This document shows positions 24,817-25,653 of a stretch of DNA of 64,000 nucleotides, in pieces; position 1 is the first letter of the stretch; the number at the start of each line of letters is the position of its first letter. Position numbers and translations under genes: made by a program. The notes under the pieces were generated by a model. It was not told where the DNA came from, did no database searches, and saw nothing but the letters and a program-made list of their open reading frames with translations. The stretch covers positions 481,664 to 545,663 of the forward strand of contig CAXNMK010000002.1 in assembly GCA_964203225.1 (NCBI GenBank), in the 5' to 3' direction. This DNA comes from Kofleriaceae bacterium (GTDB taxonomy: Bacteria > Myxococcota_A > Polyangia > Haliangiales > Haliangiaceae).

Positions 24817-25653
24817 ATGGTGAAGGGCACCAAACGGCGGCCGCGGTGGCGCGTGCTGAAGGGGCGGGCGGGGCGACCGCAAGGTGAGCTGTTCGCGGCG
24901 GCGGCGAAGCGGCGGCGGAAGCCCGGGGTGCGGCAGGTGGGCCGGCCGCCGAAGGGGGCGCGGGCGGGGTCACCTCACAAGACGCGCACGGAGTTCAAGT
25001 CGACGCAGCCGGTCCACGTGGTGCTGCGGGTGCACGGGGACATCGTCGAGGGTGGAGGGCTGCGGAAGGGGAAGCTGTTCGCGGCGATCCGGGAGGCGTC
25101 GATCGTGGCGGCGAAGTGGGAGGACTGCCGGATCGTGCACGCGAGCGTGCAGCAGTCGCACATCCATCTGCTCGTCGAAGCGGAGGGGAAGGCGGCGCTG
25201 GCCCGGGGGATGAAGGCGTTCCAGATCAGCGCGGCGAAGCACATCAACGCGGTGATCAGCCGGCGGCTGTCCGAGCGGCGGCGCGGGGCGGTGTTTCCGG
25301 ACCGCTATCACGTGGAGATCATCACGTCGCCGCGGCAGGCGCGGCACGCGCTGGCGTACGTGCTCAACAACTGGCGGAAGCATCGAGAGGATCGGCGCCC
25401 GTTCGCGCGCAGCTGGACGCTCGATCCCTACTCGACGGCGGTGATGTTCGGCGGGTGGAAGGAGCGCGGGCCGATCCTGCGGCTGGACACCCTGCCCAAG
25501 GCGTACATGGGGTTGTTCGGGTGGCTCCCGCGGACATGGCTCCTGACCGTCGGGTGGAGGAAGCACGGGCTGTTGTCCGTCGACGAGGTGCCCGGGCCAC
25601 GGCCAGGTCCACGCGCGGCGTCACGCCGGGCAGCGGCTCCGTTCCGCGGTTGA
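24817..25653 (+). CDS. REP-associated tyrosine transposase (RAYT) / IS200-like Y1 HuH transposase family protein
   Basis: HuH motif (SHIHLLVEAEG) and C-terminal catalytic-Tyr region (RYHVEIITSPRQARHALAYVLNNWRKH). These align to E. coli RAYT motifs PEHMHCIW...RFWEHAIR...DYIYINPVKHG. Alternative starts are ATG 24778 and 24808. Confidence 0.7.
   Translation: MVKGTKRRPRWRVLKGRAGRPQGELFAAAAKRRRKPGVRQVGRPPKGARAGSPHKTRTEFKSTQPVHVVLRVHGDIVEGGGLRKGKLFAAIREASIVAAKWEDCRIVHASVQQSHIHLLVEAEGKAALARGMKAFQISAAKHINAVISRRLSERRRGAVFPDRYHVEIITSPRQARHALAYVLNNWRKHREDRRPFARSWTLDPYSTAVMFGGWKERGPILRLDTLPKAYMGLFGWLPRTWLLTVGWRKHGLLSVDEVPGPRPGPRAASRRAAAPFRG

Follow-up and report, generated by a model that had tools for sequence, protein, structure and literature searches.

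A REPtron is a RAYT gene (for REP-associated tyrosine transposase) flanked by its own REPs, and this flanking by cognate repeats is its defining arrangement. The biology of REPINs and RAYTs is known mainly from Proteobacteria. A typical REP is a palindrome of 20-40 nt with a 5' GT[AG]G foot; in REPINs such palindromes form inverted doublets, and they flank the RAYT. The substrates of TnpA-REP carry this 5' GT[AG]G foot together with a CT cleavage site (PMC3479197). TnpA-REP and the RAYTs (for example E. coli YafM, PDB 4ER8) make up class 2 of the TnpA-Y1 proteins, for which the Tyr-motif signature is Y---NP (PMC6006769, Table 1). Class 2 also contains subclasses that lack REPs, namely 2.1 and 2.3 (Quentin et al. 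2018, PMC6006769; Bertels group 1), and RAYT-like genes flanked by terminal inverted repeats (TIRs) have been named TIRYTs or TIRtrons (Di Nocera et al. 2013, PMC3733652). Both REP-less and TIR-flanked RAYT-like genes are therefore already described (PMC6006769, PMC3733652, PMC5581495). The class 1 enzymes, the IS200/IS605 TnpA proteins, share the HuH-Y1 superfamily and the Pfam domain with the protein considered here.

We analysed a 64-kb stretch of DNA (hereafter the window) in which the original prediction had placed a RAYT-type Y1 HuH transposase gene next to a dispersed, REP-like family of repeats. The window is chromosomal, as it encodes RpoN, AccC, PtsI and other core proteins, and the relatives of its RpoN at 90-95% identity are named Kofleriaceae; the genome is that of a soil myxobacterium, in agreement with the myxobacterium-like genome that had been suggested. 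The reading that accounts best for our results, and which we consider probable, is that of a stand-alone and intact RAYT-like HuH-Y1 gene that belongs to a large clade, is located in a variable island and is expressed from a conserved promoter of its own.

The Y1 gene is an 837-nt ORF on the plus strand (24817..25653) that encodes 278 amino acids. Its GC content by codon position is of the coding type, with about 0.94 at position 3 and about 0.5 at position 2 in a genome of 72% GC. The protein belongs to the Y1 HuH superfamily: it scored 29.7 bits against the Pfam model Y1_Tnp (PF01797), for which the cut-off is 23, and this model was also matched by 30 of 30 relatives. The HuH motif HIHLLVEAEG was found as predicted, with His115 and His117 encoded at 25159-25167. 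The catalytic Tyr181, encoded at 25357-25359, is part of ALAYVLNNWRKH and sits inside the stretch YVLNNWRKH. In an alignment of 30 members of the family His115, His117, Tyr181, Asn184, Asn185, Trp186, Arg187 and His189 are invariant, and so are several Trp, Gly and Pro residues of the C-terminal extension (residues ~190-260), which is conserved and rich in Trp. A G-R-P-x-K-G stretch near the N-terminus is almost invariant; in the window protein it is the AT-hook-like motif GRPPKG within a basic tail. No HTH or DnaA_C domain was detected with Pfam. With its HuH, Tyr and Asn residues, the ORF is predicted to encode a catalytically intact, RAYT-like Y1 HuH single-strand DNA nuclease/transferase. 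By analogy with TnpA-REP, the enzyme would nick single-stranded DNA through a 5'-phosphotyrosine at Tyr181, and its metal would be held by His115, His117 and Asn185. The dN/dS values in the family are 0.24-0.40, and those of the window gene against its 88% and 80% identical homologues are 0.24-0.29; at the level of codon substitutions, these latter ratios show that the gene is kept by purifying selection.

The assignment to the RAYTs held only in part. The NCBIfam equivalog model for RAYTs, NF047646, was the best family match, yet its 31.3 bits are far under the cut-off of 80. The IS200 model NF033573 gave 21 bits, against a cut-off of 55. In 30 of 30 family members the RAYT model outscored the IS200 model, all of them again far under the RAYT cut-off, and the fold of the protein is like that of TnpA-REP and unlike that of the dimeric IS200/IS605 TnpA. 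A direct sequence search of the PDB with the Y1 protein returned no match, and a profile search of the PDB returned only ISDra2 TnpA, weakly (E 0.1). The family comparisons support a position nearer to the RAYTs than to the IS200 transposases. The alignment of the C-terminal block with the catalytic-Tyr region of RAYTs was likewise borne out with respect to Tyr181 and its position in ALAYVLNNWRKH, but not with respect to the class 2 signature: where TnpA-REP and the RAYTs have Y---NP, the window protein has Y181-V-L-N-N185-W186, and Trp takes the place of Pro across the whole clade. The protein is not a canonical RAYT.

The clade is, judged from the sequences retrieved, large and rich in Myxococcota. 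A search of 5.8 billion proteins yielded at least 2,759 relatives among 8,000 candidates scored, mainly from soil metagenomes and from MAGs of Kofleriaceae and other Myxococcota. The named ones among these relatives are labelled 'transposase' or carry the COG-derived name 'REP element-mobilizing transposase RayT'. When 1.84 billion cluster representatives were searched exhaustively with a profile, at least 1,285 clusters at 50% identity were matched at E<=1e-30, most of the hits being full-length, and a search of genome contigs with the Y1 protein recovered only relatives at 44-48% identity. A very large RAYT-like clade lives without REPs, and the pipeline labels 'RayT' and 'transposase' should not be taken as evidence for REPINs. 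The clade may be recognized by YVLNNWRKH, the N-terminal GRPPKG tail, the Trp-rich C-terminal domain and a conserved palindrome close to the promoter. MAG268 has two copies of the family. The two copies found in an Acidobacteriota MAG share 83% identity and sit in differing contexts. The window protein and its 88% relative co-occur in the same two metagenome samples, and the two genes may or may not be paralogues in one genome. On one contig with the 88% homologue (L001; homologous and syntenic loci are designated by L numbers) we also observed a 111-nt direct repeat of 86% identity (3792-3902 and 4916-5026). Its first copy begins 33 nt past the stop codon of the homologue and its second lies 1.1 kb downstream within a called gene; the repeat probably arose as a duplicated gene fragment.

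Upstream of the Y1 gene we identified, from its conservation upstream of homologues and from the limit of homology, the AT-rich motif AAAATATCGGCGAAAT (24761..24776, plus strand). The core of this motif, ATATCGGCGAAAT, forms an imperfect palindrome (ATATCG-G-CGAAAT) located just upstream of a putative -35 hexamer; the motif is unique in the window, where 0.03 occurrences are expected by chance. DNA homology to the 88% homologue (L001/L002) spans 24761-25668 and that to the 80% homologue (L004) spans 24761-25598, so that the first base of AAAATATCGGCGAAAT is the exact left limit in both comparisons. These two homologues sit in unrelated neighbourhoods, and the sole DNA that travels with the gene is a stretch of ~56 nt upstream of it that holds the ATATCGGCGAAAT motif. 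The same motif was found at the same place upstream of other family members, at positions 2870 in L001 (and likewise in L002), 2146 in L004, 7902 in L005, 3324 in L010, 5956 in L014, 5948 in L015, 4949 in L023 and 3438 in L024, with a variant in L025. It is kept upstream of homologues with only 45-60% amino-acid identity, including the two in the Acidobacteriota MAG, and it occurs in two phyla.

The order of elements is the same across the loci: after the motif come a TTGAC-like hexamer, a gap of about 17 nt and a TAnnAT-like hexamer, and the start codon follows 6-8 nt further on. From this conservation of hexamers and spacing we infer a sigma-70-type promoter at 24782..24810 on the plus strand, composed of TTGAAC (24782-24787), a 17-nt spacer and TAGGAT (24805-24810). 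The promoter ends 6 nt before the ATG of the Y1 gene, and therefore the mRNA transcribed from it would be leaderless or nearly so. A scan for consensus promoters, at its threshold, called none upstream of the gene. A sigma-54 promoter for the GGCAC...TGC sequence upstream of the gene was considered and rejected on account of its incorrect spacing and its lack of conservation at the other loci. The palindromic motif, at about -41 to -56, looks like an operator or an UP-like element and could act as such, possibly bound by the AT-hook-like basic N-terminus of the Y1 protein itself. Searches of the literature on this motif, and on the clade of the Y1 gene in Myxococcota, yielded nothing relevant.

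Comparison of gene order with four related loci (L031-L034) places the Y1 gene in a variable island of 5.3 kb (22561..27888) that is bounded by the stop codons of a pair of conserved convergent genes, of which the right one ends at 27891. The first gene of the island encodes an HK-like protein of 233 amino acids (22557-23258, plus strand). It is followed by an intergenic, G-rich tandem array of 607 nt (23293..23899, plus strand), which consists of (GGTGGC) x53 and then 16.5 copies of the 18-mer CGGTGGCGGCCTCGGCTT. A gene for a four-helix-bundle (4HB) protein of 104 amino acids (24333..24647, plus strand) lies 170 nt upstream of the Y1 gene; its product belongs to the family of 23S rRNA-intervening-sequence proteins (41.7 bits with PF05635, cut-off 33.8). 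Beyond the Y1 gene there is a second G-rich array of 1,396 nt (25890..27285, plus strand), built of ~78 copies of the 18-mer GGCGACGGGCGCGGGTGC. Between this array and the conserved convergent gene is a 115-aa ORF (27450-27797, minus strand) with good coding signal and no Pfam match. In L033 (GCA_031421915.1, ~80% nucleotide identity) the two conserved stop codons abut (TGATCA) and the window segment 22561-27888 is missing, while in L034 the slot is filled by an unrelated 384-aa ORF and no Y1 gene. L032 (96% nucleotide identity) diverges straight after 23258 and has no left array, and L031 (94%) has the left array at the same site, where its contig ends within the array.

Both arrays are hexamer-based, with their G-rich strands in the same orientation, and they interrupt metagenome assemblies of this organism (L016 and L017 break inside the right array). 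Coding potential of the arrays was considered and rejected: the right array has no coding signal, the ORFs that cross the arrays arise from the repeats irrespective of frame, and the real genes on either side stop short of the arrays. Two metagenome contigs from this organism carry the 4HB-Y1 pair as well; the 4HB gene was nevertheless rejected as a constant partner of Y1, as it is absent from all the other contexts of Y1 homologues that we checked. The window contains a second small 4HB gene related to the 23S rRNA-IVS protein family, directly after rpoN (14061-14417, plus strand), which was identified only through 75% tblastn identity to a Pfam-annotated gene in L031. A similar gene is present in L034 and none occurs at that site in L033. 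The two 4HB genes are unrelated to each other by BLAST, and both look like small insertional genes.

The dispersed family of elements of ~80 bp, in five or more copies, was confirmed and extended. Searches with an HMM, followed by a covariance model derived from the copies, gave seven full copies scoring 68-101 bits and one partial copy in the 64-kb window, the next best match of the covariance model scoring 19 bits. On the minus strand the copies are at 2019-2111 (the partial one), 2101-2189, 2190-2271 and 41317-41402; on the plus strand they are at 6088-6165 and 6166-6256, which form a direct tandem, and at 10498-10588 and 34142-34232. The unit is a GC-rich sequence of ~85 nt with three different hairpins that show some compensatory changes. 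Elements occur singly or in direct tandem (period 82-84), never as inverted doublets, and always in the orientation of the upstream gene. The sequence GGT[GA]GG, which contains GT[AG]G, precedes the central 10-bp GC hairpin by 2-3 nt in all seven full copies, and CTGAG forms the left edge of every full copy except 2190-2271. At four of the five element loci the upstream gene, which is co-oriented, has the TGA of CTGAG as its stop codon; such stop codons include those of accC (10501-10503), a VWA gene (6093-6095) and a PanE-like gene (41397-41399). Rfam, at the gathering threshold, detected no family for the elements or for anything else in the window. Taken together, these features suggest a lineage-restricted repeat that targets the 3' ends of genes, or a 3'-UTR RNA element. 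The GT[AG]G before the central hairpin is a likeness to the REP foot and a resemblance only: the REP and REPIN are shorter palindromes that form inverted doublets, whereas these elements have ~85 nt, three hairpins and no such doublets.

A pairing of the elements with the Y1 gene, which would have extended REPIN-RAYT biology to myxobacteria had it held, was not supported. The copies nearest to the gene lie 14.2 kb upstream and 8.5 kb downstream; neither the HMM nor the covariance model located a copy within 8 kb, and no inverted doublets flank the gene. The string that had been proposed as a possible degenerate copy shortly after the stop codon, cccggggtagggtgggctcccggcgcgagggg, is present at 25681..25712 (plus strand) and proved not to be a copy of the element. 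With its filters off (--max), nhmmer reported nothing there even at E<=50, and the unfiltered covariance model produced near the gene only matches of 6-7.5 bits, among 89 noise hits with E<10. The 11-mer shared with the elements, CCGGGGTNGGG, occurs twice outside real copies, within chance given that shuffled sequences reach three occurrences, and the predicted folding of the flank does not exceed that of shuffled sequence (z = 0.25 and -0.61). Across the Y1 gene, here and at six homologous loci, we detected no inverted repeat above shuffled controls. We also applied, within the 64-kb window, the criterion of Bertels et al. (PMC5581495), which is genome-wide over-representation of 16-mers from the flanks; no 16-mer of the three flanking spacers recurs in the window outside the arrays.

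The ~85-nt elements are no more than a candidate DNA substrate of the enzyme in this Kofleriaceae genome. They are abundant (8 in 64 kb) and partly tandem, like BIMEs, the GT[AG]G foot and the CTGAG start resemble the substrates of TnpA-REP (PMC3479197), and the sole Y1 gene of the window encodes a RAYT-like fold. We nevertheless regard it as unlikely that the enzyme is an unlinked, trans-acting RAYT that mobilizes the three-hairpin elements in a REPIN/RAYT-like manner from a gene not flanked by repeats. The short sequences GTGG and CT are expected in DNA of 72% GC, the three hairpins differ from one another and stand in fixed orientation behind stop codons instead of forming an inverted REP doublet, and the flanking repeats that define a REPtron are missing at the distances given above. 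Furthermore, no element was found on the contigs of the 88% and 80% homologues (~20 kb surrounding these genes) or in other loci totalling 234 kb, among them Kofleriaceae relatives and ten other family members, and a metagenome scan with a 20-base core of the element gave five hits, none of which fitted the model and which we take as chance. It is very unlikely that the locus represents a REP/RAYT-type system of Myxococcota in which an unlinked Y1 gene, leaderless and preceded by a palindromic operator (ATATCGGCGAAAT), has escaped from its repeats targeted to gene 3' ends. The G-rich arrays as products or substrates of the Y1 enzyme are a highly improbable alternative. They are the two largest arrays of the window and bracket the 4HB-Y1 pair, a weak inverted match to the unit of the right array is present at 24134-24170, and arrays or direct repeats lie less than ~500 nt from some homologues, in L024 (2806-3292), L006 (9220-9366), L014 (5672-5897) and L025. 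On the other hand, arrays are common throughout these genomes and absent beside most homologues, their units and orientations vary between loci, they have no hairpin potential, and their enrichment near the gene was noted post hoc and is not significant by a rough count.

The gene and its promoter motif could themselves form a minimal autonomous, IS-like transposon of ~910 bp (24761-25668) that inserted recently in the island. The 88% and 80% homologues, with their different neighbourhoods and a sharp limit of homology at the same left base, would fit such an insertion, as would the location of the gene in a segment that close relatives either lack or have in another form. One MAG, moreover, holds multi-copy relatives with TIRs. 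In the Deltaproteobacteria MAG EC_MBin.16 (L006-L009 and L011-L013) we found seven copies of a unit of ~1.27 kb with a Y1 gene of the family, ~85-97% identical to each other as estimated by eye from their translations. Each is bracketed by terminal inverted repeats of ~200 nt that contain GGTGTAGCCAATAGGG, with inverted-repeat scores of 80-104, and no solo repeats were present away from the gene in ~140 kb. This form is TIRtron-like or IS-like (PMC3733652), and part of the family is clearly mobile; its proteins are distant (45%) relatives of the window protein. At the window gene itself, however, neither terminal hairpins nor TIRs are present, a right end cannot be recognised, and the 64-kb window contains no second copy or other Y1 gene. 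The class 1 signature is missing (YVLNN instead of Y---Q), and the neighbours of the gene are the 4HB gene and the tandem arrays, with no tnpB. The identical homologue P0062 occupies one fixed locus, with the same neighbours in six of six contigs among those listed (11 read), from differing samples. Conservation of a promoter and an ORF is also what one expects of any conserved gene in a rearranged genome. An IS-like element of this kind is hence doubtful, and we retain the reading of a stand-alone gene. The gene probably entered the island together with its promoter, as a unit that moved horizontally or within the genome, and would now persist as a low-copy, domesticated or orphan gene.

Set against the known systems, the locus shares features with several of them. 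Besides its Tyr motif, the window protein differs from TnpA-REP and the RAYTs in having F, not W, at the position of the W[EQ] motif, and in its length of 278 residues, which includes a basic N-terminal tail of ~60 residues and a Trp-rich C-terminal domain of ~70; the gene lacks flanking REPs or BIMEs and a high-copy flanking 16-mer in the window. The REP-less subclasses 2.1 and 2.3 and the TIRYTs/TIRtrons are likewise RAYT-like, longer than the core, equipped with extra C-terminal domains, free of REPs adjoining the gene and in some cases flanked by TIRs. By the tabulated motifs alone, the window motif differs from those of subclass 2.1 (YIELNP or Y[IV]HLNP) and of subclass 2.3 (PMC6006769), and on this comparison of motifs we could not place the clade in any of the published subclasses. 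From a TIRtron the locus differs in having no TIR, the inverted-repeat score across the gene being 10.0 against a null of 12.5 +/- 1.1. On balance we favor the view that this is a stand-alone gene of a Kofleriaceae genome and part of neither a REPtron nor a TIRtron nor an IS200-type element. The TIR-flanked, multi-copy sub-lineage of the same family could serve in the study of shifts of HuH-Y1 genes between the mobile and the resident state. The copies in EC_MBin.16 match the TIRtron pattern exactly, as RAYT-like genes flanked by TIRs, yet their TIRs extend over ~200 nt and, as with an IS, the unit is present in multiple copies.
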